From Trichodelitschia bisporula (Eukaryota), in assembly GCA_010356995.1 (NCBI GenBank), contig ML996695.1:195061-259060 (forward strand): a stretch of DNA of 64,000 nt, read 5' to 3'. Of the stretch, positions 18,709 to 36,969 are shown piece after piece. A program made the position numbers and the translations under genes. The notes beneath the pieces were generated by a model that was not told where the DNA came from, searched no databases, and saw nothing but the letters and a program-made list of their open reading frames with translations. Numbering within the stretch: position 1 is the first letter of the stretch; each line of letters begins with the position of its first letter.

Positions 18709-21096
18709 TCTGCTTTGCTTCCATATGACATTGCTGGCGCTTGAACCAGTATCACGATGCTTCCCGATGCGGAAATATGTTTTTCATCACGATCTCGCTG
18801 CCTGATGGCCTCGCGACAGCAGCCCATAAGTCATGAACTTCGCGGCAAACTATACAACTCGCAGAGAACTATATGATTGGCGACTACATCCCAGGTTCGC
18901 GACTCAATAGATGAAGCCCCACAACCGTTTCGCAGATATTAATCGCCTCCGAAGATGGATGAAGGGGCTGGCCAAAGCTCCCCTCTCACACCACAAACTC
19001 AACTCCAACCTCATCTCATCGCGAGAAGCGGCTTGCAGAAAATCTACACCATGCAGGTCGATACCAGCCTCGCGCATCTAGTTCCAAGTCTCCGAATGCG
19101 TGATATTTGCCGTTATCACCAACTTCCAGCGTAGAATACTCCCAGCCACTTGGTCCCTCTGTCACTGACTCTCTCCCAGAATACTTCCACCCACTTAGCT
19201 CCCTCCCTCGCCATCATTGCTTCATTCAACGATCCCCTCATCCCACGCCCCACTTCAAGAAGCTCTAGAATCCCCATTCTGGAAGTCGGCCTGACTCGCC
19301 CTCCCCCGCTCTCAAAAATCCCATTTCCCACCCCACCTATCACCGCCCATCCCTCCCTCCGAATATCCACGCCTTAAAGGGCATCAACGACACTGGTCCA
19401 GTCCTCAGCCGCACAACGCAGACGCCCGATCCATGCCCGCATCACCACCACCGCCTGCAATGCAAGGCACATCCACAGGCATCCCCGCCGTCGCCGACGC
19501 CACTCCTAACCACCACCACCGCATCATCACGACGCCGGCGATCCCCAAGCACCTCGGCTCCTCCTCCCCTCCCCGCGCCACCCGCAGGAACCCGCGCCCG
19601 TATCACCGCCTTCCTTCTAGAAGACGCAGAGGCTGAGCAGTGACGCGCAGATAAGACATACATGGCGCAACGCACGGTGGCGCATGTGACGGCATCGCCG
19701 ACCGGCCAAACACCTCATCGGGGCCCTCGCTGCGCATCGGGACCTGAGCTTCGCATGAATTGCGCGTGAGCTACGGCGCCCGATGCGCGATGCCCGCGGG
19801 GGCCGGCTGAAGTTGCACTCGCAGTAGCAGCGCAGGATCGGTGGCTTGCGAAGGGCCGTGGATGCGGAGATGCGATGTGTACCTGGCGCGCAAGCGTAGT
19901 CCGTAGATTCGAGACGAAGTGAAATGACGCTGTGCTTCCACGCCGTGCCCTCAAGAGTGTGCTACCTCGTCCAACTGCCCCATCCACTCCATACCCAAAA
20001 ATAGCCCACCCACCCGCCCGCCCACATGGCCATCACCGCAAACCCGTCTTCCCTCCCACGTTCTACAGCAGATAGTTCTAGTTCTAGCAGACAAACAAGG
20101 CAGCTGTACCCCCCCATCCTCACTCCGCACCTCCCGCTTCCCCTTTCCATCTACCAGTAGCCATACCCCGCATGGGCATGACACGCGCGCGCGCCACTCC
20201 CATCACTACCCCTCCCCTCCGCGCCACCCCAACGGCCTCCCTCCAAGCCCAACACCACCCTACCCCAATCGCCCCCACCGCGGCCCCCGGGGCACGAACC
20301 AGGACCGGCCCGGAAAACGAGGTACGTGTGTGGCCGCCGAGTGGACGCCTGTCTCGGCAGGGGTCAATGCTCAAGGCAGGTCGGCACGGGCACGGGCTCG
20401 GCCCCCCCTGCTCTCCGCCCCCAGCCCGGCCGGGGGCGGAGGGCAGGGGCCCGAGCTGGGGTGCCGTGCGGGGTAAACCCGGCTGCTTTTGCGAGGCATG
20501 TGAGTGTTCACCGGTTGGGCGGGGGTGGCTCTGTAGGTTAGGTGAGGCGGTGCGCTCGGCGAGGATTTTGGAGATTTTGAGGGATGCGCGGGGGTGGGAT
20601 CGGTGGGGAATATGCGGAGGAGTGGGAATATTGAGATTTGGTTTACGGGGCGGTGCTGCGGTGATATGCGAGGGGATCAGGAAGGGAGTGTTGGACGCTA
20701 ATAGTACATTGGACTTCATTTCACGGTGCGGTGTAGTACTGCGGTGATATGCGATGGGATTCGGGAAGGAATGGGTTAGACACTACTAATAATACAGATG
20801 GAATCTATGTACCAGAAGAAACGAGGCAACGCCGGCGAGAGGGAAAGTATGTACCCGAAACGAAAGCATAGCGAAAAGGGGAATCGTGCAGATCGCGTAA
20901 AGGAAGATCGCGCGCAGAGAACATATCCAAGCGAAGCAGTGTACGCGGAAAAGAAAGATCCCAGAAATCTCAGACAGCCACTTTCCCGTGTCCCATATCC
21001 CGTCCTGTATACCGTGATTTGCAGATCATAGCGCATAACCCCAGAAATCATATCCGATCGCTCATATCCATCTCGCGAGAGAAAACGACAGTGGTA

Positions 21097-23691
21097 TCAA
21101 ACAACAATGTACTCCCCCTCCGCGCGGCACATAGCCCGCCGCCATCTAAACGCCTGCCCACCGAGCGAACTCAGCATCGGCACCGAAGCACAACTGTCCG
21201 ACACCTTGACAAACTCCCACGCCTCACCAGCATCATCCTCAGCCCATACTCGCTCCAAAACCTCAAGCACGGTAAGGCTATTGAAGAAGGAGCACTCACG
21301 CGCAATCTCCAAGCAGCGCGAGCGAATGATATCCCGATGCGCACCATGCACACACTCCGTCCCAACAACAAGCACCGGCCAAAGCAAAAACTTATTCACA
21401 CAACTCGCCACCGGAATCGCAGCAATATGCCGCAACGCCGCAGTGACAAGCCCCTGAATCACACCCGACGCCGGCGGCGCATGCGGCGCCGCCAACCGCT
21501 CCGTGTACAGCAGCGCAGCATGCCGGAAAGCCTCGCTAATGTGCACCACTGAGGCAGAGTCCCCATCCGCCATGGGCGGCGACATCGGGCCGTAGGGAGG
21601 CGCATCCATAGCCCAGGCCGTGAGCCGCATGCGGATGTGGTGCCACTCAGTCCAGAAGTCCTGGCGGCTGGGCTGTTGGAAACCCAGTCCGACGGCTGGC
21701 GACGGGCCCAGCAACACCGAGCCCCACCCGTTGCTGTCTAGGCTGTAGTAGTCCTTAGCGACAGGGGCGCCGGGGCTGGCGCGGGGCGTGGGGATACGCG
21801 ACGGCGGGAGCATGGCCTCGCTGGCACGGCGGGTGTGCGAGTGGAGATTCAGCCGGCCGAGGCGGGCGATGAGCTTGAAGAGGCGACCGTCGCAGCCGGC
21901 GAGGTGCTCGAGCGCGCCGAGGTTGGCGGACAGGTCGAGCAAATCCAAAGCCTCGCCGCGGACGAGGGTTTCGCGGTCGTTGACCGTGGCGGTCATGACG
22001 TCAAACCAGGTGAAGAACATTTCGATCCATGTGACGAAGGGCGACGTGCCGTTGCGCCGATCGCGCATGGCGAGCAGCTTCTGCACGCCGGCCAGCTGAG
22101 TCTTGAACTTGTTGAAGCCGCTGTCGCAGACATGGAAGAGGCATAAAATGAGCAGCGTGGCGAGGACGGAGTCATCCGCCGCGCTAGCCGGATCCTTGAG
22201 CGAAGCATTGAAGAGTGCCACGGCATTGGTCTTGTAGTGAATCTCTTCTGGTGTAGCCTCGCTATGCATGTCTCGGATACCATCGGCTGTCAGCCGGTCG
22301 AACGGATCCAATCGGTCGAGGCCCTTCATGTTACGCATGCGGATGTTGTTGGTTGCAAGCGCGGCAATCGCGTTTTGCAACGCATTGCTAGACCCGGCTA
22401 GGCGCATGATGTGCATGCGGTAGGGGTTGCTTGGGCCATCGAAGGCGACGAGCACGGGGCAGATTGCCTTGTCATAATAGTCGAGCAGATATTTCATCCG
22501 GGGTGCCATATGGTTGAAGCCGCACGGATCCACCGGTCGCTGGACAGTGTGCGACCACGCAGGCTGCGCGTAGTCTGGAAAATGCTCTGGCATGCCGTTC
22601 AGAAAAAAGTCAGGCTCCAGCCTTGGGGCGTACGTGATCTGGATGGGCTCAGAGGGTGGTGTAGACATGTCCGTGCGGCAGAGAAAGTCGGAAAAGCTGC
22701 TCAACGTCACTGGGGGCGTCGTTGAGTACGTCTCGACGCACGCGGCGCTGCTGAAGTCCGAACCAAGGCTGGACGACAAGTACTCGTGCACCGGCACGGT
22801 TTGCGGAGATGCATTTGCGTAGGCGTACACATCGTACTGCTGGATCGGGTCTTGTTGAAAAGACAAGGAGTCAGAAAATGGATGAAGCATGGGCTCCGCC
22901 ACGGACCCCTCTTCCGGTGTGGGAGGCAGCTCACTGGGCGAAGGAAAGTCGCTCTCACTGAAGGTGCTGACGGAGCCCGTCGACGGTGCAGAAAAGAGCG
23001 ATTCTTCGTAGTTCGTCGGGAGCGTGTGCACCCTCTGTAGCGGCCGCGGCCGCGTCTGAACACGTGCGGGCTTGTCACCCAGTGACCCGTAACCCTCCAT
23101 GTGCTCGTGAAACCCCGTCATAGGCCATCCCGAATGGGGTGGACTCGAGCTCGGCATCGCGATCGGAATCGGAGCCGTGTGGCTGTAAGGCGTGTACTCG
23201 TAACCCGCGTGATGGATCTCGGTCCCGTGTGAGAAACCTGTGTAACCCGTTTCTTCGGTTTTGATTTTGACATCTGGCTCCAGGATTTTCGGCATTGAAA
23301 GTGTCCGCGCCTTTGGGGTCGGCTGGGCATTGGCAGCTGCGTTGTCATCACACGCCCTCCTAGTGGAATTCACAATCGGCAGCGAAAGCCCCCGGAGCTT
23401 CCCTCTGCTGGCCACTCCGACACCCCAGGTGAGTGTCGTTCTGTAGCCCGAGCATTCCTTGCCGATTTCCAAACACTGAGTGCCTACGGAGGTAAGCAAG
23501 AGATTTCCAACAAACTCATAGGACGTACAATAGGGTCGCCTCCGATCGCACCGCAACTGGCGCTTCCGGCATGTGAAGCAATCCTCAGTAGCACCGGTGG
23601 TTGTCGTTCGTCGGCGCCGCTTACGAGGAACAGCGGCCTGATTGTTGTTGGTAGATGCTGCCTCAGCAGCCTGAGCGGTACATGATGACAT
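21097..23691 (-). CDS. Zn(II)2Cys6 transcription factor with fungal-specific TF domain (Acr-2-like); intron 23484-23528
   Basis: 'DCFTCRKRQLRCDRRRPYC|TQCLEIGKECSGYRTTLTWGVGVASRGKLRG' after intron removal; C-terminal domain 'YYDKAICPVLVAFD..NPYR', 'FFTWFDVM', 'LLWPVLVVGTEC'. Confidence 0.9.
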   Translation of the reverse strand: MSSCTAQAAEAASTNNNQAAVPRKRRRRTTTTGATEDCFTCRKRQLRCDRRRPYCTSYEFVGNLLLTSVGTQCLEIGKECSGYRTTLTWGVGVASRGKLRGLSLPIVNSTRRACDDNAAANAQPTPKARTLSMPKILEPDVKIKTEETGYTGFSHGTEIHHAGYEYTPYSHTAPIPIAMPSSSPPHSGWPMTGFHEHMEGYGSLGDKPARVQTRPRPLQRVHTLPTNYEESLFSAPSTGSVSTFSESDFPSPSELPPTPEEGSVAEPMLHPFSDSLSFQQDPIQQYDVYAYANASPQTVPVHEYLSSSLGSDFSSAACVETYSTTPPVTLSSFSDFLCRTDMSTPPSEPIQITYAPRLEPDFFLNGMPEHFPDYAQPAWSHTVQRPVDPCGFNHMAPRMKYLLDYYDKAICPVLVAFDGPSNPYRMHIMRLAGSSNALQNAIAALATNNIRMRNMKGLDRLDPFDRLTADGIRDMHSEATPEEIHYKTNAVALFNASLKDPASAADDSVLATLLILCLFHVCDSGFNKFKTQLAGVQKLLAMRDRRNGTSPFVTWIEMFFTWFDVMTATVNDRETLVRGEALDLLDLSANLGALEHLAGCDGRLFKLIARLGRLNLHSHTRRASEAMLPPSRIPTPRASPGAPVAKDYYSLDSNGWGSVLLGPSPAVGLGFQQPSRQDFWTEWHHIRMRLTAWAMDAPPYGPMSPPMADGDSASVVHISEAFRHAALLYTERLAAPHAPPASGVIQGLVTAALRHIAAIPVASCVNKFLLWPVLVVGTECVHGAHRDIIRSRCLEIARECSFFNSLTVLEVLERVWAEDDAGEAWEFVKVSDSCASVPMLSSLGGQAFRWRRAMCRAEGEYIVV

Positions 23692-25028
23692 ATTGGAATC
23701 AATCGAAGTGGCAAGAACTGACGGGAGCGGCTATGATTGACTCGGGTAGGGCCCGGAGAGTTTATGAACAAGAGACCGGATTTGCGGCGAACGGTACAAC
23801 GAGACCCGGATTTGTGAGCGCGCTTGGGCATATAGACATTGACTTAAGGTGGGCATTTAGATGAATTAATGCAGATTCCCGACGGCCTCTCCGATAAGGC
23901 TCGCGTTTGTTTGCAAGGACATGGTATGATGGACCCCAAGGCGATAGCAAGTGACGCGTGTAGGCTCCGCGCGAGAAATAAATTAAAAGCGAGGACGAGG
24001 TTGGCAAGTGCAAACATGAAGTAGGCCTCAAGCGTGGGAAATGAGACACCAGCAGGAGGCGTGTGGTCCTCCGGGACGACGATCCAAGTTCAAGGTCTGG
24101 GGCCGATAGGGAAAACTGCCACGCACTTGAGGGGAGCGAGGGGTAAAAGGAGTGGAGGCAAGGCTGCCCGGCCTTGGGAGCTTCAAGCCGGCGAGGGTTA
24201 CATCGCCGTCTGTTGTCCTAGGAGGCCGACAGTAGCTAGCGGGTAGGAACACCGGGCGATGGAGAGGGACCCAAGGACGATTATCCCAGCCTGCAGACGA
24301 AGTTCGAGCGCCACGTCCGCATAGCCAATGGAGACATTCCGTGCATGCGGCGATCTTGCGGCCGCTATTTCGGGAGAAAGGGATTCCAACGGTCGCTGGA
24401 CGCTTGTGGGGGTGAGGGGGGTGAGGGGGGCTAGAGGCGCAGGGGGACGTACACTTGCCCTTGATGCCATGGCAAGAGTTGCCGTCGGGCAGCCGGCCAG
24501 CACTCCATGTCCACGCGCCAGGAGTAGAAGGTTAGGGGGCGTATTGAAGAGAGTCTCTTGGACAAGGAATCAAGGATCTGGGGGTGGGTGTCCGGTCCAC
24601 GCCTGTCTATCGTCGTTGGAGCAGCCTGAAGGCCTGAGGATTAATGCCAGGGGACGGATGCATTGGCCTCGGTTCGTTTGGTGAGGGTTATGAGCGAATC
24701 AGCCTTGCGTAATGACAGCCAGGAAGTTCGGGATGGTGGGGGGGGGCGAATAAAAGCGAGAGGAGACGAGGATGGGGGAGGATTGTGGAGGTTGAAAGCT
24801 ATGCCGGAGCTGGCCGAACCCCCGCACAATTCGCACGCCGCACCTCGCACGGCTGCATGGAAGCCCACGCGGAGCGCGGGCGACCTTCTAGCCGCCTCCT
24901 CTCCCGCCGCGCCTCTTCTCTATCCTCTCCACTCACGGCTCCTCTTCACCCCCGCTCCTCGCCGGCTGGCCGTGCTGACAAGCCGACGAGAGGCGTTGTC
25001 GCCGGCGACGGTCCGGCCCTCTGGGAAT

Positions 25029-25061
25029 CTCGCAAGCCGCTCGCAAGCCGCTCGCAAGCCG
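25029..25061. repeat. Tandem repeat (CTCGCAAGCCG)x3
   Basis: Three perfect 11-bp copies, read directly. Confidence 0.85.
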
Positions 25062-28000
25062 TTCAACAAGCCAACCACGCCAAGTTCTCACGCCCGCCGC
25101 GATAAAAGAACTTCCGACGGCCAGCGATTTGAGTACGTAAGGGTGCAGAAAGCCGGTCTGCTTTGCACACGGTGAGCAACCCGCATCGCGAGGCACACCT
25201 CGTGAAGGATGCATCAGATCGCGCAACTCAATGCACAGCGTCCACCATCCGCAGCCATCATCAGTTTGGATGACGAATAGTCGAGTAAACGACTCCTACC
25301 TGTTCCTTGATTTCGCCTCAAGGATATCCCCCCTCCCCCAAATTTTGGCGAGAAAGAAGTCCTGCGGGGAGTGGTGCCGCAAACCCCGCAGCCGAGCCCT
25401 CGCTGGTTGCCCGCCTGGCAGTTGCCCTTTCCTGCAGCAGAGGATCGATACGGCGCACCGCGCCCCCTTCCTGGCCTCCCCCTCGTCCTCTCTCTTGTTG
25501 TTTATCCACGGGGTGATGTTTCGAACCCACAAACCTGGGGCTGTCCAACAGTTAATTAATTTTGTCCAGCCACCGCTGCTCCGTCGCAGCACCTGCTGAT
25601 GCTTTTGTCGCACGCTGCTAGCAGGCAGCGGGGCGCGTGGCCCAAAGGCATACTTCCTCCAACCTCGCCAGGACACGCATGCGATGCCTCGTATCCCGCT
25701 CGGCTTCAGTCCGATTGCGTTCTGTTCCTGGATGGAATTGATGCCTGCACTGCGAATGCTCGTTTCTTTTTTTCCATTTCCCGTGGATATCAGGCCGTGG
25801 CAAGCGTCAGCATTGCGGAAACGACCGCGATACGAGTGGGGATAGCTGCTGCAGACCCCCACGCGGCTTCACCTTTCGAGGCTGACCCCGCCAACTGCCG
25901 CGCTTCGGGACGGCTTTGTCCCGGTAAGCGAAGAGCAAAATTTGCGGCAATGAAGTGGCAGTTTGGGGGTGGCGGATGACGATTACGTGCATTCGGGTGA
26001 CAGTGCAGCCGATATATTCCCGTGGCCAGTTAAAGGGAGAGGGTGCCCGTATTGCACGGGCATATATGCACTACGCATTCACCTTCAGCAGCCTACAGAC
26101 TGCTAACTGCGATGCAGAAACGCTACGCACCTGCGATGAACGTCAAATTCACGCTAGGCACGCCGAGCGCGCACAGATTCGGGCCCGCTTCACGGCTTCC
26201 ATGCTAGGGAGCGTTTCCTGGTCTCAAACGGCTTCCGTCCTACAAGGGATCAAATAGATTAAATGTGTTTATTTCTGGAGGGACATACCCTGCTCTGCGA
26301 CGACAAGCACCACAGCTCTTCCGCCCTGCGGATATGGGTCTCATGATCGCGATATTTTAAGCTTCAAGCGTCCGGAGACCATAGCCTGGACGATGGAAAG
26401 AGAGACATGGAGCTCGCGTGGCTGGAGTCCGATGAGGGAAGGTTGACAGTTGGGCGGTTTCGAGAGCCCGGAGTGTCGGTCTGACACCGGAATAGTTTCG
26501 ATGCGCTAGGCGCCTAACTGGTTGGATGGCCGAAATATGCAGTCACCGGAACAGGCCTATTCAGATAGCGTCGGTTACTTGATGGACCAGCGGCAGGCCT
26601 GCAGAAGACTTGTAGCCGTGAAACCAACGTCGGCTCCATATCGCTGACGATGGGGAACGTCTCCGCCCCATGGCATAAGCGTTTATAGCGCGGAGCCATA
26701 GCGCGGAGCTCGTCAACCAAAGGCTAGATGCTGCTTGTTGACTGCGAATATTTTCCGAGCTTGCTCGCTTGCCTGCATTCGGATAGCGTTGAGCTAGTTC
26801 AGAATCCCACAGATCAGCTTCCCCGCTCTCCACATGATAGCTCAATGAGAAGCCATTCGGCGTGCTACATATCGCGTTATTGCCGGATCGATCGATGGGG
26901 CGGCAAACAGAACCGGTGGACGGCCAGCGTAACCGGGTTACGGGAAGTATTGCTCACCAAGGGCAGCAAACCTGTGCTGCGGGAAAGGATATGAAAGAAT
27001 ATGCCGTCGTGCGGTGGTTGACATGGACAGTTGAGATGAAGTCGAAAACTGTGAAGTCGTGAAGTTGCAAAGTCGTCAAAGCTGAGCCGATGGACTGAGA
27101 CATGCCGGTGACGTATGCTGTCACGTATCAGATCTTTCAGATGCCAGCCTTAAAGCCTTAATGTCTCCTCTGAGGATGCCTCAGCGCCAAGAGATAGTAG
27201 TCACGTTACCACCGACTCCTGTTCTCTGACTCGTGTCAGGTAAGGCCGCTCATTGACTTTCACGACAAACGCTTATTCCGATCCTGAATCCTAATATCAC
27301 ACTCCCCAGCAGAGCGCGCCCACCTGACGTATAGCTCTTGGTTCTCATGCAGCCTTCCATCGTTCAGTCTTAGCTCTACGTTCCTCATATCACACACGGA
27401 GCGTTGCGAGTCCTTTCATTCGTTATCTTTGCTAGCGGCTAGCTCATGTCAAAGTGGCTGATGCTGCGAGTGCTGCGGCCAAAACAACCCACGCTTACAC
27501 TGCGGTCGACTCCTCTGCCTGCCTCATGGTGAAGCATCGATGCCATTTGCTCTGCGTCTCGCTCCTGCGAACTCAGCTGCCTTCCTCCAGCGCCCACCCA
27601 ACACCCACTCGGCCGAGAGAGATGGAACTCCACGATAATGACAGGGAACCGCCCTGTTTACACATGCCTAATGGTTACTGAATCACACTGGACGCATTCG
27701 TGTCTGCAGCCAGTCCCCACAGCCCCTCCTCGTTGGTCTTTCTCCTCGAAACGCCCGACACTAATGTATATACTAAGGTATGATATATCACGGCGCCTCC
27801 CCGCATGAAGCGCGCGGCAGTTGGTAACTTCGTCCAACCAGGTACTGGCTTAGCCGAACTGCGTGAGCATTGACTTGATTGGTACAAGCGAGTTCCGCCG
27901 GGTGGTCGCCTGTGTCGTCTAGTCCCTGGGAGCTATCCAACGTCCGGTTATGTGGTTCGCTTTGTTTAGACGCAAGCAGCTCCAACTCTTACGCCGACGG

Positions 28001-28834
28001 ATTCCCATGCATCGTAATCGCGGCTGTGGCTGACTTCTTAACGGCACTAAATTCACCCGATGCTAATTTCGCCACCATAGGATCAAACAGGCAGCAGAGT
28101 GGGCGATTGCTTCACTGCGGTGTCCTGCATTCGTTGGCTTTTCAAACCGCTTGCGCATGATGCCACTCCGAAACGCTGCTTGAAGGAGTCCGGTGAGAGG
28201 CGGATTTTAACGCAGGAGAGCGGATATAATAGCCGCTTTTGAGTCTATTCACTCACCTCCGGGCCTCGACCGTCTTCCCGAGCCGTCTCTGGCCCACTTC
28301 CCGTGCTGTCAACGGCCAATGAAAATTTCACAATTACTTTGTGTGGTTACAATGTGGCCTCGGAATAGTCCTCGCGGTGACACCCTTTCTCTGATATCTG
28401 TCTCTCCTGTGGCTTTTTGCCGATTTTGTCTGCACACGCCACCCAGCCAACGGATTTCTACCTAACAAGGCCAAGGGAAGACGATTTGATAAACCCAGCC
28501 AACCTACGCCCACCATTGATGCCACTGGAGCTTCATGATAGCCAAGTGGGGCTGGAAGGATCAGGAAGAGGTCTATCATCATCGTCGCCAGTGGGCTGTG
28601 AATCAGCTGAACCTGCACATGCGGAGACCCAGAGGATCGAGGAATGGGATTCCATCACACCTTTTGCAAACAGTGCTGCTTTGTCGGCCTACTGAGTGGC
28701 AAGGCCACCTATAAAATGCGGGCGAGAGTCCCCCAAGTTGCTTCCATCAGCTCGGCGCCAACTCTCAGAAGCATACAGATCTTCTTCCTCTTTCTCAATC
28801 AGATATTTCAACCTCCACCTTAACAACTGTAATC

Positions 28835-29150
28835 ATGAGCACACCAGGGACCGGTGGCGGGTACATGAGATACCGTTGCTGCTATTGGGACGACGAATCA
28901 TGTGAAGGTTGGGTTTACCAGAATGGGGACGCATGTGGTCGCTGTTTGGTTGGTGGTCTTGGCTTTGGGGGAGCTTTAAGCATGAATTAACATCTCGCAG
29001 GAGAAAGGACTGCCGGCAAAGCGAGGCGGCGGTAGCGTGCCCTATCCCTCTGATTCCGATGAGTTCGACGTCCGCATTGCTGGAAGTGGCGTTGATGGTG
29101 TTGATGGGGTTGCCCCAGTTCACCACTACTGCTACTACCACCATGCTTAA
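28835..29150 (+). CDS. Small Cys-rich hypothetical protein (87 aa; zinc-ribbon-like); exons 28835-28948, 29001-29150
   Basis: TATAAAA at 28710, CT-rich leader and AATC-ATG context. Exon 1 = MSTPGTGGGYMRYRCCYWDDESCEGWVYQNGDACGRCL; intron GTTGGT..TTAAC..CAG; exon 2 begins EKG and ends TAA. Confidence 0.7.
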
Positions 29151-32100
29151 CTGCTGTCTTTCGCCATAGTGGTGCATTCAGGAGCGCCAAACGTTCCCCG
29201 CATTCAAGGGCTAGGCAGTCTGGGGGCGTCTTCCTATTGTGCGAGCGCTACAGGGGGATGGATTTGGCTCGGGAGGTTTACTTTTGCTACTCAGCTTAAA
29301 GTGTGAAGGGTTGGAGATTGTTCGTGAAGCTAGCAAATCAGCACCTTTCAAACCCGTGGCAGAGCCTCTTCTTCAGCCAACAGACTTCGTGTGACGTCTG
29401 TGCTGCCGTGGCCCCCACATGCGGAAACAATAGTGAATGGATGCAAGCTCTCCAATAGCGGACGTCAGGAGAAACATGTTGACCGACCTTCCCGGGGGAA
29501 AGTTTGACACCAAGCGTATAGAAGCCGGTCCCCGGGGGAGGGGAGGGGAGGGGGAAGATGATGTACTATCATGGCTGCAGATGCAAAATAAAAAGACCAA
29601 TGTGGTATCAGCAGTGATGTGGTTAGTCGCAGGATCATGGCTGAGCCCCTGGAAGGGCAACACCAACATCACGCGCGCGCGCTTTACGCGGAACACATCG
29701 GCGAGTGATAATAATCCGCGCGGCACGGGCGGGGAGGAAGGAAGGTAGAGCAGATGTCGCATCGAACCCGCAGGGCTGACTTCGAGAACGATCTCTGCGG
29801 AAGGCCCGATGATTTTGAACCCTGCGCAACATGGCGGCATAGTCCGGAGCTACATCACTCGATTGCTTGCATTTGCTTGGATTACTCTTCCTCTTTCAGC
29901 TTCCACAGGCTCTTTTTTTCGGCTCTGCAAGATCGGCTAACATGGCCTGGAAGCGGGCCTTGCTGCATGGTAGTGTCCACAATGAGCGACTCACAGCGAG
30001 GCTTGAATGCTCTAGGATGGTTCTCCGCTCCGTATCGTGGCCCTAATGGCCGCATTGGCTGGGTCGCCAACCGGTACGTACACCCGCCATCAGCATTCAA
30101 CGCCCCAACGGCATTCATCCCTAGTACGGCTTGTGATGGTATATCGCCCGGTAACGGTCGCATCTCTTTGCAGGCGGGGGTTGCGTCAACAATGCTTCTC
30201 AACTGATGGAGGGGTGACAGGGCGGATTCCCTTCCAATGAGCCTATAGCGCCATGCCCAGGACTACCTCGACAACGAGATAGCAAGTCTCCTCGTCAGCG
30301 AGATGCTCGCCAGTCTTGCACACTCTCCCTTGCACGCGACCGTTGCTGCCAGAATCAGCAGGCTCCTTCGCTTGGTGTGTTTCGCTTCCGTGGTGGGTTG
30401 TTTGAGACTCTTCAACGGACCGCGAAGCCGGGCACTAATATACTTCGCTGATGGCGATGTGTGGCACGCAATAACAGACGCATTATTACAAAGGTATTTG
30501 AGTGGGCGTGACGAACCACGCACATCCCGATATTAGGGTGGTCCGCACATCGTCCGAGCGCTACGGAAGCTCCCTGAACAAAACCCCACGTCCCGAGGTC
30601 CAAGCGATGCCTGGCTATATGATCCGCAATAATTTCAGGCTCTAGACGTGAAACACAGTCGACATCAATACGTCATGGACTCACTAGCTGTATCTGTAGT
30701 CACCACCCTCTCGTCACCGGCTTACTATTCTTGGTACTTATCCGGTGACGGGTACCTGCCCACATACCACGCATATGTCCCAGATAAGTAAGGTCAGTAA
30801 GCCCGAACCCCACGATCTCCTCATCTGCCGTAACCCTTGTCTTTGCTCTCCACCACCCCACCTACCACCCCATCCCTGGTCCACCCGGCTTGTCGACGCG
30901 GTGCGCGGCATCGCGGACCGCTGCACAAGCTCCCCCACCTCCTGAAACCGTCCGGACGGCCCCCGTCGATGCTCAACCCGGCGTTCGATGGTACAGTGTT
31001 AGCGGATCTGCTATCGTACCTGGATCTCAGTCGAGGCCCGTAGACACCAAAGATAGAATCCACCTCCAGCTCCCTTATCACTCCAGGCCGCGAGTGCGCG
31101 GACGAGACTTGCGCTAAACACCTCGAACAACAACCCCCGCAACCGCGCGATAAGAGCTTCGCGTGGAATGCAAGCACCATCGGGAAGCACTATATTTGAG
31201 TCCACCCGGGGTTCGCGACCAGCCGGGATCTGCGGGTTGCCGGCACCAATGTACAGATTCCCAACGTGCGCTCACTAAGCTTCTTCGAGTCTGTGCTCTG
31301 GCAGCAGGGACATTTCGCGGTCCACGTGGAGCTGATATGGAAACAAACGCTCAAGTTGCCGGTGGACGCAAACATCCCCTGTCCGTGTCTTCCCGCGGAC
31401 GTCAGCAAAGAATATACGCATATCGGCTCGAACGGTTCGCAGAGCCTATAGCGTTAGCATTTTAACGACCGACATCGCAGCCGTTTGCCGCAATACCCGG
31501 ACGGTGAGCCCCTCGCGATGCATCCTTATCCCATTAATTAATATCAAGCGCACAACCCTCTCTTACACCTGGGGCTTCGCGAGTGTACGTGGACGACGTT
31601 GGAAGACGCGAGACTGCCGCTGTAGGAACCCGAAGCCTGCATTTCAAGGCAACTACGGTTCTCTCAATGCTAGTTTGCTGGCATTGCGTCGGTTTTTGTT
31701 GATAACATTAATGCTCTGAGTAAGACGTCGTGGTACAAGGGAACTGCTTGCTAACCACGTCAGCCTTTCAGCCTTGCAACTGGCAACTCGCTTTCGCTCA
31801 CCGCTTGCCTGAACATCACGCCGAAGACAGAGGGCAACGTGCTCGTCGCAAAGGTCTCTGGCGGCCGGTTTTTCCTGCATGCGAATCCGCCTACAGTTGG
31901 CAAGAAACAGCCTGATCAGTGCTTCCTTCCAGAATACCCCGAACGCATATCACGTGATACTCGCCTTCCTCCTACCCAACGACATCATGACAGCTGCCAT
32001 CCAACCCACCCCATCCCCAGAGCACCATCCCCTATAGCCCGTTTCACCCCTCACTTCACCCACTCCCATCCACCAACCCATCTCCCCGCAGCAAATGCAA

Positions 32101-33275
32101 TGGCCCACCAGCGCACATCCCTCCCTGCAAAGCACATCCGCGCAGCAAGCCTCGCACGCGGTTGGTCAACCTCTCAAACACGCATCACCTCTCGCCTCCC
32201 CTCACTCCAACTCGCCCATTTGTCATCCACCCCGCAGGTCATCCACCCGCAGCCGCTCCAACCAACCGCGCTCCCACCATGCGCCCGGCAAGTGCCGACA
32301 CCTGCACGCTGCACGGCGTGCGTATGCCGCGCGTCGGCCGATCGGCGCATGTCGCGGTTGGCCGCGGGCACAGCTAGGCTACTCGTGTGGCTGCGGCACG
32401 CGCGGGAAAAGACAAAGTGGAGGAGAAGTCGAAGTAACGCCCGCCCGATCCGTCGCTGATGGTCGCAGGGCAGCACGCAGACGCACTCAGGCTGCGGCGT
32501 GGGCGGGGAGGTCGTAGTAGTGCCCGGCCGTTGGGTCACTGACGTCGCACGGCGTCGAGCAGACATACGGCAGACGCATCCCGTCCTGGCGTGTGCGATC
32601 CGAGTGGAGCGAGTCTCCGCCCCCAACTCTGCTATGCGAGGATAGTGCGAGATAGGATGGAGAGCGTGTGGTTGTAAAGCCGCATTGCTTGCCTTGATTT
32701 AACATTTCGCGGGGGGAGAGAATTCTATTCGTTCCCCAGGGCAACATCCAACGCGTCCAACACGATACAAGCATTGGGTGATGTGGCGCAAGGCTGCGCC
32801 TCTATCAAAAAAAGTACACTGCTGCGCGAATGCTGCTCGAAAATCTCGTAAGATCACTATCTCAACTCCGCATTGGTGCAATGCACATTTAATTATATGC
32901 AGATGGGATGGCTCAGTAATCATGTCTTGCATGGTAAACACCTTTCGCGCGTCCCATGTCCCGCCGGTATAGTGTTCCATGCTTATCTCAATCTCTGGGC
33001 ACGGCCGTTCAGCCTTGGCCAGCCTTGCGATCCTGCCTGTACGCCGCGGCGTCTGCTCTTGCTGCTCCTCCGCATAGCCAACTGTGACGTCAACCCGTAA
33101 GCTCTCATCGCCGCGCTTCACCGGACACTCCCGCTCCTCACCCCTCGCGACCCATTCCCACAATTCAGCAGCACTCCTTGAACGCTATCATCATCCTCCT
33201 TCTCAACATCACTTCTTCCTCCACTTCTTCCCACCCCTCCAAATCTCCCTATCCCCCACGATCCATCTCCCCACC

Positions 33276-34439
33276 TCAACAGCACTCCCCAAACTCAACC
33301 TCATCATCATCCCCCTCCCCATCATCAATATCCTCCTCCGCCCCCTCCCACCCCTCCAAAAACGCCCCCAAATTCGGCCCCAGCCTATCAAGCACATATC
33401 CCCCCTCAAGCAACAACACAGCCGGCCCACGAAATGACCTCCTAACCCTCTGCCCAATGACCTTATAATCCGGCGTATCCAGCGCAAACCCCCCCAGTGG
33501 ATCTAAGTGAAAAGTATCAAACCCCAGACTCACCAGCAGGCAATCCGGCTGAAAGCCATCTATAACCCTCAGCCCCCCCTCCAACTCCTCGACATACCTC
33601 TCCGCGGAGCACTTCACAGGCAGCGGAATATTAACATTCATGCCCTCGCCCGGCTCCTCACCCTCCTCCTCCTCCGCCCCCGTGTAATACGGATACTCGT
33701 CCTTGCCATGCAAACTGACGTACATGACGTCCTGATCCTCGTAATAAACACCCTGCGTCCCATTCCCATGATGAAAATCCAGATCCAAAATCGCAATCTG
33801 CGAATTCACCCCGTTTAGCGCCCGCACCGCCGCCACCGCCACGACGGCATTATTAACATAGCAATAACCCCCTGCCTGCGTCGTGGTACAATGGTGTCCA
33901 GGCGGCCTCGTCAGCGCCAGCACACTGAGTTTATTTTCCTCATCCCCATCGCCCAGAACCGCTCGCACCCCCTCCACCGCCAGCCCCGCACTCGCCCTCG
34001 TCGCCGCCCACGTTCCAGCCCCAATGCCGCTGCTCATATCAAACGCAAACCATCCGAGCCGGGCCCAGGGATCGGACGGCGCCTTGGAGGGGCCAAGATC
34101 TCTGGGCGGAAAACATTCCGGCAGCAGACTCGCCGAAGTGTCGATCAGGCCTGCGGCAGCGGCAGAGGCGTGCACAGTGCGCAGGTGCGCGAGGTAGTCT
34201 GCCTTGTGGGTTATGGCGAGGAGACGGTCGAGATCGAGGCCGTCGGTGGCGGGGGGACAGGGGGAAGATGGGGAGTGCTCGGGCGGCGCGTGGATGGTGC
34301 GGACTTCGTGATGTGTTGTTGCGAGGTAGGATAGGATGCTGGTGATGCGCTCAGGAGACTCGAGGGCGGGGATGAGGGATGAGCCGAGCAGCTCGACTGT
34401 TTGATGGGTGAGGGTCGTGGGGTCGTGGAGGACGAGCAT
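33276..34439 (-). CDS. Zn-dependent deacetylase of the HDAC/acetylpolyamine amidohydrolase family
   Basis: Intronless 387 aa with 'ESPERI', 'RPPGHH', 'GGYCYVNN', 'DLDFHHGNGTQ', 'SLHG', 'SLGFDT..DPLG' and 'LEGGY'. Confidence 0.9.
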   Translation of the reverse strand: MLVLHDPTTLTHQTVELLGSSLIPALESPERITSILSYLATTHHEVRTIHAPPEHSPSSPCPPATDGLDLDRLLAITHKADYLAHLRTVHASAAAAGLIDTSASLLPECFPPRDLGPSKAPSDPWARLGWFAFDMSSGIGAGTWAATRASAGLAVEGVRAVLGDGDEENKLSVLALTRPPGHHCTTTQAGGYCYVNNAVVAVAAVRALNGVNSQIAILDLDFHHGNGTQGVYYEDQDVMYVSLHGKDEYPYYTGAEEEEGEEPGEGMNVNIPLPVKCSAERYVEELEGGLRVIDGFQPDCLLVSLGFDTFHLDPLGGFALDTPDYKVIGQRVRRSFRGPAVLLLEGGYVLDRLGPNLGAFLEGWEGAEEDIDDGEGDDDEVEFGECC

Positions 34440-35175
34440 GGCGACGGATTGACAGTTTGTGGGTCGCCTGGTGGAGAGGTGTGCGATGCAGCGGTGATAT
34501 TAGCGGTCGACGTTACAGCGATCCAAGGAAGGCGACGAAGCCCACTCAAATGGTGAAGGGGCCACACTCGTGGTTCACCCGTCGGGAGCTCCGCAGAGAC
34601 GTGTCCGATATGCAGCGGTGATGACGTTTGGTGTTCTACAGTCCAAGTAAAGCGACGAAGGTGGTCGCTGTTGGTTCATCCAGCGGAGCTTCACAGACGT
34701 GCATGCAATATGTAGCAGTGATGAGAGTCCTCCAGGTCGGTCTTGCTGCGACCCAAGCAAACAACGAAGGTGAATTGAATGATGGAAACGACGCTCTTGA
34801 TTCAACCCAGCGGAGGATGGCGGACGTGTGCAACAAACAGTAATGATAACGGTGACGTGGGGCGGAAAAGAAGATACGCTGAGCATTCAATCAGCCCCAC
34901 CACCCCCGCAACGGTACTTCCTTCCCCCGTCGCGCGCACCGATCTCGGCCACCACGATCCCACACTGCGCCGCAATCGCAAGCCGCGCCCTCCCGGGACG
35001 GATGTACCCGAGTCGGCAATGCCGCGTCACGTGAACAACCGCGAGAATGCTCAGCCTCGCCCACTAGAACTATTGGACTGCGAATAGAACAGCACATTAA
35101 ACGACTTGCCATGTACAGTATACATGTTCCTACTCGCTAGATCTCACAGAAGCCACAGTATCCCACACGCCCCAG

Positions 35176-36969
35176 CTAAGCCTTATACAGCGTATCCAAA
35201 AACGTGTTCAACAACTCCACCACAACACTCTTATTCGGAAAACTCCCCGCCACGCCATACAGCGCCGCCGTATCCCCCTTCTTCGTCTTCGGCGCGCGCC
35301 CCTCCGCAATCTCCTTCCTTTCCGCCTCGCCCACCTCCGCCACACACGCCCGCAAATCATTCAGCAGATCATCCACCGCCCCTGCAACCGGCAGCGTCAC
35401 CGCCACATGCACCGCCGGCGGATCCTGCAGCGCATTGAGATGCCAACCGCGCGCGCTCATTGCATCCGCAATGGCGTAGACGTCCAGCCCGACGGCGCGG
35501 AACGAGACGACGCTAACGAGCGGCCGCCCTAGGACGCGCAGCTCGGCGGACAGGAGCGGGTCCTCGCGGATGGCTTCCTCGAGACGCCGCGCGGCGCCGA
35601 CAATCGTGTGGCACGCGGAGATATACCCCGCCTCGCCCGTGCGCATCAAGCTCGCCCAGCACCCAGCAATAAGAGCGCCGGGGCGCGACCCAGCGACCGA
35701 GGGCGAGCCGTACACGCCGCCGGGCCAGTTGGGGGTGACAAAGTACTGGTACTGGCGCAGGGAGGAGTCACGGTAGAGCACGGTGCTATTGCCCTTGGGC
35801 GCGAAGCCGTATTTGTGCGTGTCGACGCTGATGCTGGTGACGCCGGGGAGGCGGAAGTCGAAGGGTTCGGTTGGGAAGCCGGCTTTGGCGAGGAAGGGCA
35901 TGAGGAAGGAGCCGAGGCAGCAGTCGACGTGGAGCGGGATGTGCTTTTTGACGGCGAGGCGGGAGAGGGCGGTTAGGTCGTCGATGATGCCGTGTGGGAA
36001 GTTGGGCGCTGAGCCGACGAGGAGGATGGTGTTGGGGTTGATGAGGCGTGAGACGGAGGGGATGTGCACTTTGTATGAGGGCGCGGGGCACTTGACTAGA
36101 TGCACTTTGATGCCGAAGTACTCACTGGCCTTGAGGAAGGCGGCATGGGCGGTATTGGGGAGGATCCTGCGCTGTCAGTAGAGAACGCGTACGAAAAGGA
36201 CCGAGACTCAAAACATACATCTCCGGCTTCCTGACTCCGCGCTCGTGATATGCCTTCTGGCGCGCACTCAAGCAAGCCATGAGAATGGACTCCGTGCCAC
36301 CGCTGGTGCTCACACCCCCCGCACCATCAGGCGCATTGAACAGCGAGAGCACCATAGCGACAATCTCTGCCTCCATCTTGCGCACAGCCGGAAAGACATC
36401 CGGATGAATCGGATTAGCGACCGTAAACAATCCAAACGCCTCCGTCTGCAGCTTCGCCAAGTCCTCGCCGCCATGATACACAGCCCCGCTCACGCGTCCC
36501 TCCTCCCACCTCGTATGCTCCATGCCCGCCAGACGCGCCAACTCCTCGCGCACCCGCTCATCCGTCCATCCCTCGTCCGGGAGGCGCAAGTGCCGCTCCA
36601 CGCCCGGTCCCGACGGTACGAGTTTGCGCTCAAGATTGATTTTCGCTTCCGCGATTTGCGTGGCCACCTTATCGCGCACACCAGGTAGCCGCAGGAAGAT
36701 GCCGTAGAGCGAGCGGCGAATCGAGGCGTAGAGAGAGACGGTAAGACCAATGGGGCCGCGGCCCTTCAATGCGTAGAAAGCGCGACGCGTCAGTCGGAGG
36801 AGGAAGAGAACAAAGACGATGTTGCGAATGCTGCTTTGGGTTAAAGACGGGAAATGGAAGCGTCGCGCGGGGCTTACATGTCGAGGTTGAGCGCAACGAG
36901 CTGGCGCTGTCTCGCCATTTTGGGCGCAGCGTCCCGCAGGCTGATGGCTAACCTGGAAGAGCCAGGCAT
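35176..36969 (-). CDS. DPL1: Sphingosine-1-phosphate lyase (PLP-dependent); exons 36969-36878, 36830-36219, 36166-35176
   Basis: 'GRVSGAVYHG', 'NPIHPDVFP.VRKMEAE', 'TSGGTESILMA', 'HVDCCLG', PLP-lysine motif 'SVDTHKYGFAPKG', 'GSRPG'; two GT-AG introns. Confidence 0.94.

Follow-up and report, generated by a model that had tools for sequence, protein, structure and literature searches.

Two described classes of zinc finger come closest to the protein module considered here. CCCH fingers follow the pattern C-x(7,8)-C-x5-C-x3-H, and RanBP2/NZF fingers follow the pattern W-x-C-x(2,4)-C-x3-N-x6-C-x2-C; CCCH fingers and RanBP2-type fingers can both bind RNA. A third system is formed by the amyloid signaling motifs of fungal NLR/HeLo systems, in which a short motif occupies the C-terminus of HeLo-like proteins and the N-terminal end of a second protein (PMC9815663). 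The locus described below lies in a window of 64,000 nucleotides from Trichodelitschia bisporula, and all coordinates refer to this whole stretch.

The window contains, on the plus strand, a spliced gene for an 87-residue microprotein, with the exons and the 52-nt GT-AG intron as they had been proposed in a first-pass annotation made from the letters of the sequence. Coding exon 1 (28835-28948; 38 codons) begins with an ATG at 28835 that has an A at position -3, in agreement with the good start context claimed for it, and carries the conserved module, with the codons of its four conserved cysteines at 28877 (Cys15), 28901 (Cys23), 28934 (Cys34), and 28943 (Cys37). A phase-0 intron (28949-29000) with donor GTTGGT, branch-like TTAAC, and acceptor CAG then follows one codon past the last of these cysteines, and coding exon 2 (29001-29150) contributes 49 codons and the TAA stop codon (29148-29150). 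The spliced frame thus runs from the ATG at 28835 to a stop ending at 29150; without splicing, the frame would stop after 51 amino acids. Since dozens of alternative GT/GC..AG pairs at the locus also leave the frame open, the sequence alone is insufficient to fix the intron, and it is the RNA contigs that fix it at 28949-29000. No paralogue was found in three single-protein searches of the organism's own genome (a 25.8-Mb assembly of 44 contigs; the counts are lower bounds), and the gene is single-copy in these searches.

The RNA evidence consists of contigs from two public runs (X1 and X2) of one sample in one study, examined over 20000-36600; the RNA status of these runs had been guessed beforehand, no run being on record as RNA for this stretch. 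The contigs were found to skip canonical introns of the neighboring genes (23484-23528 and 36167-36218) and are for this reason regarded as RNA. In both runs they also skip exactly the 52 nt of 28949-29000, with its GT..AG ends, at depths of 59.6 and 23.6, so that the intron is supported by RNA from one sample. The contig span containing the gene extends over 27270-29497 on the plus strand, with the right end (about 29450-29500) estimated from record lengths. This RNA begins 1.4 kb above the TATA box described below, lacks in both runs a further 64-nt GT-AG intron at 27778-27841 on the plus strand, whose ends were checked, and places 22 ATGs ahead of the gene's own. Because a contig does not resolve single transcripts, this RNA may be either a long isoform started upstream or a separate, overlapping non-coding RNA; with so many ATGs ahead of the frame, an isoform that is translated poorly may be what these contigs represent.

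The gene lies in a gap of 9584 nt between the ATG of a transcription factor and the open reading frame (ORF) of a deacetylase-family gene. The first-pass annotation could support no other gene in this gap, and this holds insofar as no second convincing protein gene was found, but the gap turns out to be transcribed and spliced on both strands. Further plus-strand joints are located near 30074-30220, 31504-31548, and 31720-31763; plus-strand spliced RNAs of 29500-33327, which contain no convincing ORF, reach or enter the 3′ end of the deacetylase gene on the opposite strand. On the minus strand, spliced RNA upstream of the factor covers 23692-26957, with joints near 25249-25299, 26071-26130, and 26794/26865-26957, and may be a factor leader of more than 3 kb or an upstream non-coding RNA. 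Over 23692-27000, this minus-strand RNA shows three introns and two alternative acceptors, and as one leader it would be about 3.2 kb long, with 36 upstream ATGs; the joint near 25249-25299 has no canonical acceptor in the alignment. The ORFs of the other gap RNAs (up to 149 aa) gave no sign of being genes when homologues were compared within the fetched loci, and no convincing conserved peptide was found in the gap (two weak matches, E 0.005-0.008).

A TATA box, TATAAAA, is present at 28710-28716 on the plus strand, as had been reported, 125 nt before the ATG. Of 11 distinct upstream regions from the same subfamily, 8 have a TATAWA element 115-138 nt ahead of the ATG (8/8 of the closest type and 0/3 of the others), and across the family such an element occurs within 400 nt in 37 of 51 distinct upstream regions, the window included, compared with 163 of 1200 random windows. 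Because the element is kept at the same distance in the closest relatives, a short TATA-proximal promoter is probably real, alongside the longer RNA. From work in yeast, TATA promoters are known to go with inducible genes.

The annotation had proposed a resemblance to uncharacterised small ascomycete proteins, and database searches confirmed it. A word-indexed search among longer proteins with a 40-residue query gave no match; a phmmer search with exon 1 against 1.84 billion proteins gave 22 matches at E<=0.001, 21 of them family members; the 22nd (P0004) was excluded as a repeat artefact. A profile built from the 21 found 128 proteins, of which the best 120 were listed. The spacing C-x7-C-x10-C-x2-C occurs in 129 of the 130 proteins examined, the single exception (P0022) having a longer first loop, and in the same set Gly9 and the four cysteines are invariant, with Trp26 kept in 126 and Val27 in 128; the Cys/Trp pattern noted at the outset is thus that of the homologues as well. 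The motif had been written as CC-x7-C, which needs correcting: C15-x7-C23 amounts to CC-x6-C, and position 16 is Cys in 7 of 129 proteins and Lys in 117. In 113 of 133 family proteins, the first cysteine stands at most 20 residues from the N-terminus. The gene itself combines the C-x7-C-x10-C-x2-C spacing with GG, aromatic-x-C, and WV, and with a phase-0 intron one codon past the last cysteine followed by x-x-Gly. Judged by these sequence comparisons, the 33-residue N-terminal module is part of an unnamed Pezizomycotina family. Its named members, from Sordariomycetes and Dothideomycetes, are all 'hypothetical', 'uncharacterized', or 'unnamed'; automatic UniRef labels on three members read 'RanBP2-type domain-containing' (two) and 'protein kinase domain' (one), and the ESM Atlas holds clusters of 50-82 ascomycete members with no Pfam assignment.

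Conservation extends to the gene structure. Among 80 metagenome loci searched, 76 have an intact motif, and in these a GT stands one codon past the last cysteine in 66, a GC-type donor in 3, and an in-frame run-on in 7, the last being spliced or intronless sequence. The loci are not independent, with 55 distinct module sequences among 77 (window included); in pairwise comparisons of these 55, pN is lower than pS in 1483 of 1485 pairs (median pS 0.84, pN 0.24), and between this gene and its closest relatives pN is 0.23-0.24 with pS saturated. On these substitution measures, the module is under purifying selection. The family is also under-annotated, because gene callers often read the frame into the intron: Val occupies the intron-entry position in 44 of 129 database proteins. 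Proteins such as MYCTH_2085008 (Thermothelomyces thermophilus), BU16DRAFT_537083 (Lophium mytilinum), and SAPIO_CDS6647 share the module, cysteine spacing, intron position, and N-terminal placement with this gene. Its own subfamily is acidic, with exon 2 starting in a GLP[AS]KR-type sequence and without a conserved β-hairpin tail, whereas proteins of the Sordariomycete type combine a basic module with a conserved hairpin (residues 54-88 of a modelled homologue), and their genes often adjoin a DEAH helicase gene. Two database proteins (P0010 and P0019) contain a second copy of the module, partial or altered, within the same protein.

Compared with the closest relatives, exon 2 shows 38% identity over 48 residues (E 4e-05), but the similarity is limited to the first 8 residues and is gone beyond them in 8/8 comparisons (shuffle p 0.16-0.92). 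As the alignments indicate, the first eight or so residues are conserved in the subfamily and the tail past them, including its His/Tyr-rich end, is not. Indeed, the module alone makes up the whole gene in L018, L064, L072-L074, and L076, with a stop 5 residues into exon 2.

In AlphaFold2 models, the module is predicted confidently (pLDDT about 87 over residues 11-38 of this protein, and 84-91 in blocks of a homologue), with the linker and tail ends at low confidence; the model of this protein has a pTM of 0.44, and two of the five models are poor. A complex prediction for two copies plus zinc scored 0.02 with the alignment not used and weighs neither way. A compact zinc-binding module had been suggested from the cysteine spacing, and the four invariant cysteines in an intracellular protein are consistent with a C4 module; one structural zinc ion is predicted from them with good confidence. 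Searches for known domains gave nothing comparable: Pfam returned no match for the exons (E<=10) and no RanBP2/NZF match at E<=1 over 22 members, two weak single-member Pfam matches among these being disregarded. Two profiles gave 0 matches in the PDB by sequence; ten weak PDB matches for exon 1 (E 0.3-1.8; antibody light chains and light-harvesting proteins) were attributed to chance. Fold searches with the module found none at Z>=2 and none at E<=0.001, an absence that does not show a new fold, and the tail hairpin of a homologue reached Z<=2.3.

Taken together, these features point, with a probability of about one half, to an inducible intracellular zinc-knuckle adaptor or inhibitor that would bind a protein partner through an aromatic surface. 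The single-copy, TATA-driven, two-exon gene would encode a soluble intracellular microprotein in which Cys15, Cys23, Cys34, and Cys37 coordinate a single zinc ion and give residues ~6-46 the fold of a small knuckle; the closely spaced, conserved Tyr, Trp, Phe, and Gly residues would form both its core and the binding surface for a conserved protein partner, and the variable tail would be a flexible, lineage-specific extension. The protein would be switched on under particular conditions and act by partner binding, not as an enzyme or a secreted factor. The annotation's finding of no signal peptide stands: neither a signal peptide nor a membrane segment is present (hydropathy at most 0.68 over any 19 residues), and by hydropathy alone the first 25 residues contain no hydrophobic stretch (8-residue means of at most -0.39). 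Because there is no hydrophobic segment, disulphides in a secreted protein are unlikely. The four invariant cysteines ending in CxxC, the purifying selection, and the confident models of the module suggest such an adaptor, as do, by analogy with portable interaction modules, the stand-alone module genes, the Xylaria fusions described below, and the non-conserved tail. Family members average 7.8 aromatics per 30 residues with a net charge from -3 to +4, and an aromatic-rich module of variable charge is more in keeping with a surface for proteins than with one for nucleic acids.

Against an adaptor, 85 of 92 distinct modules carry a net charge of +1 to +4, which would suit nucleic-acid binding, and the module could instead be an RNA- or DNA-binding zinc finger. 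Of its two arms, the first is similar to the C-x7-C half of a CCCH finger (a likeness found in 120 of 134 proteins) and the second to the CxxC arm of a RanBP2-type finger; 58 of the 92 distinct modules are at net +3, and aromatics are many. However, the present module is acidic (-2, and -5 for the whole protein) and lacks the basic residue of the CCCH-like arm, a net negative charge is seen in 5 of the 9 distinct modules from its subfamily, and the complete CCCH and RanBP2 patterns are found in 0 of 134, so that nucleic-acid binding appears unlikely here. A metal buffer or a metal/redox sensor of metallothionein-like kind, induced by stress from the TATA promoter, appears rather doubtful: the protein is very small, cysteine-containing, and intracellular, the TATA element is conserved, and this copy has two further cysteines and four histidines besides the four conserved cysteines, but across the family only those four are conserved, the aromatics and glycines are nearly as constrained, beyond the need of simple chelation, and the His/Tyr-rich end is not kept.

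The adaptor reading can be extended to the wider occurrence of the module. Scoring of 7998 candidates gave 4 matches in longer proteins. In two Xylaria gene models the module precedes tandem retropepsin domains, and in two others it closes a protein that also has a weak HeLo match (E 0.046 and 0.092) and a ULD_2 ubiquitin-like domain; all are automatic gene models from one genus and could be merged genes. The fusion proteins are P0135-P0138 and P0190, with accessions KAI0971035.1, KAI1359187.1, KAI0817855.1, and KAI1357050.1 among the Xylaria fusions; counted by protein cluster, 4 from Xylaria join the module to other domains. An undescribed C4 zinc-finger class might serve filamentous ascomycetes as a portable, non-amyloid signaling handle, fixed in some lineages on proteases and on HeLo-like/ubiquitin-like cell-death proteins and, when expressed alone, forming an inducible microprotein able to compete with such partners or to bridge them, here co-regulated with the neighboring factor through a shared divergent promoter and long spliced leaders; this is a speculative and quite unlikely extension. 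The likeness to the amyloid signaling motifs of PMC9815663 lies in placement alone, this module being Cys/aromatic and folded. A fusion on the effector side was seen (P0137 and P0138), with no NLR among the four long matches from the 7998 candidates, and three family motifs were absent from the 11 of 13 supplementary files of PMC9815663 that were searched. Decayed copies, with Trp codons now stops, occur in L060, L069, L078, and L081, the last about 3.6 kb from a NACHT-ankyrin gene.

Upstream, the gene is divergent from a Zn2Cys6/Fungal_trans_2 (PF11951) transcription factor (21097-23691, minus strand; 849 aa after removal of the intron 23484-23528). The name OefC-like, considered for this factor, is not adopted here. 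The linkage between the two genes stood for this subfamily and failed for the larger one. Among 13 subfamily loci, 4 have at least 5.5 kb of upstream sequence, and 4/4 carry a factor orthologue in the same orientation (57% and 47% identical in L003/L004 and L024/L080; Zn_clus plus PF11951 in L024), about 4.6-4.8 kb from the gene, compared with 5.1 kb in the window; these four loci represent only two independent lineages. In the larger subfamily (63 loci, 21 informative), the factor is upstream in 0/21 and a DEAH helicase gene in 13/21; the present genome has its DEAH helicase gene on a different contig, and the adjoining 9.9 kb contain no copy of the module. Because of this difference (4/4 versus 0/21), the linkage is regarded as a subfamily trait, which hints at shared regulation but not at a function common to the whole family. 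That the protein is a dedicated regulator of the factor or a partner co-regulated with it, with a shared divergent promoter near 27,000-27,270 and the long upstream isoform damping the TATA-proximal promoter, is improbable. The divergent arrangement, the plus- and minus-strand spliced RNAs starting within a few hundred bases of one another, and the retention in L024/L080 of no other window gene than the factor within the fetched 20 kb speak for it; on the other side, L003/L004 keep several other window neighbors, so that their case is one of general synteny, and the gap DNA is otherwise not alignable.

One 10-mer, containing ATG-TAA, is conserved at 24197-24206 on the minus strand, 512 nt before the factor ATG. 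It is the only 10-mer common, on the same strand, to the 5-kb gaps of the window, L003, and L024, it stands 608, 482, and 504 nt before the factor ATG in L003, L024, and L080, and L004 also carries it; some shared 10-mer appeared in 51 of 300 simulations in which position was ignored. It may be a start-stop element or a binding site, and the definition of start-stop elements as translation regulators in PMC13338717 bears on this side observation. Downstream, the deacetylase-family gene (33276-34439, minus strand) has acetylpolyamine amidohydrolases and HDAC6 as its best solved relatives, and L005 likewise has a homologue of it downstream of the small gene. In L037, L038, L043, L045-L048, L051, L070, and L077, a conserved protein of ~980 aa with no Pfam match is encoded downstream.

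That the frame is no longer translated, leaving a non-coding RNA with a relic ORF, or that a 114-aa antisense ORF (28833-29177) is the gene, is extremely improbable: despite the 22 upstream ATGs of the long contig and the decayed, stop-containing copies elsewhere, the frame is intact with its own TATA box, all invariant residues, and low pN against saturated pS, the gene is single-copy, and only 20 of 54 homologous segments have an open antisense register, which was rejected as the gene.

The module is under strong selection across at least the Sordariomycetes and Dothideomycetes, in most cases as a very small gene of its own, and has no Pfam model, solved relative, or paper found: literature searches returned no paper with a family motif or with three locus or accession names, and topic searches gave nothing on this family in titles or abstract starts. 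It is small enough for direct assay and structure determination, with a member in a tractable, non-pathogenic fungus (MYCTH_2085008), and if the fusions are real, it would be a new interaction unit for fungal proteolysis or cell-death signaling. Small conserved hypothetical proteins being common in fungi, the finding is useful, not startling, until a partner is found.

Compared with the known zinc fingers, the module resembles RanBP2/NZF fingers (PF00641 type) in its C4 site and in the 10 residues from the second to the third cysteine followed by CxxC. In contrast, its first two cysteines are 7 residues apart, not 2-4, there is no Pfam match, the W-x-C start, the Asn at +4, and the ubiquitin-binding TF pair are each found in 0 of 134 family proteins, and the full pattern is absent from these and from this gene; fold searches with the 38-residue model listed no RanBP2/NZF-type chain, an absence that does not exclude a two-hairpin zinc-ribbon fold. 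What 120 of 134 family proteins share with CCCH fingers is a C-x7-C first arm in which one basic residue and two aromatics follow the cysteine (C-[KR]-aromatic-aromatic-x4-C), the basic residue being absent from this gene; the C-x5-C-x3-H second half occurs in 0 of 134. The module may act like a RanBP2/NZF or a CCCH finger, yet by these tests it is a member of neither class. Overall, as far as its residue pattern tells, it is an undescribed variant of the C4 zinc-finger kind, from a family already present in databases as hypothetical proteins.
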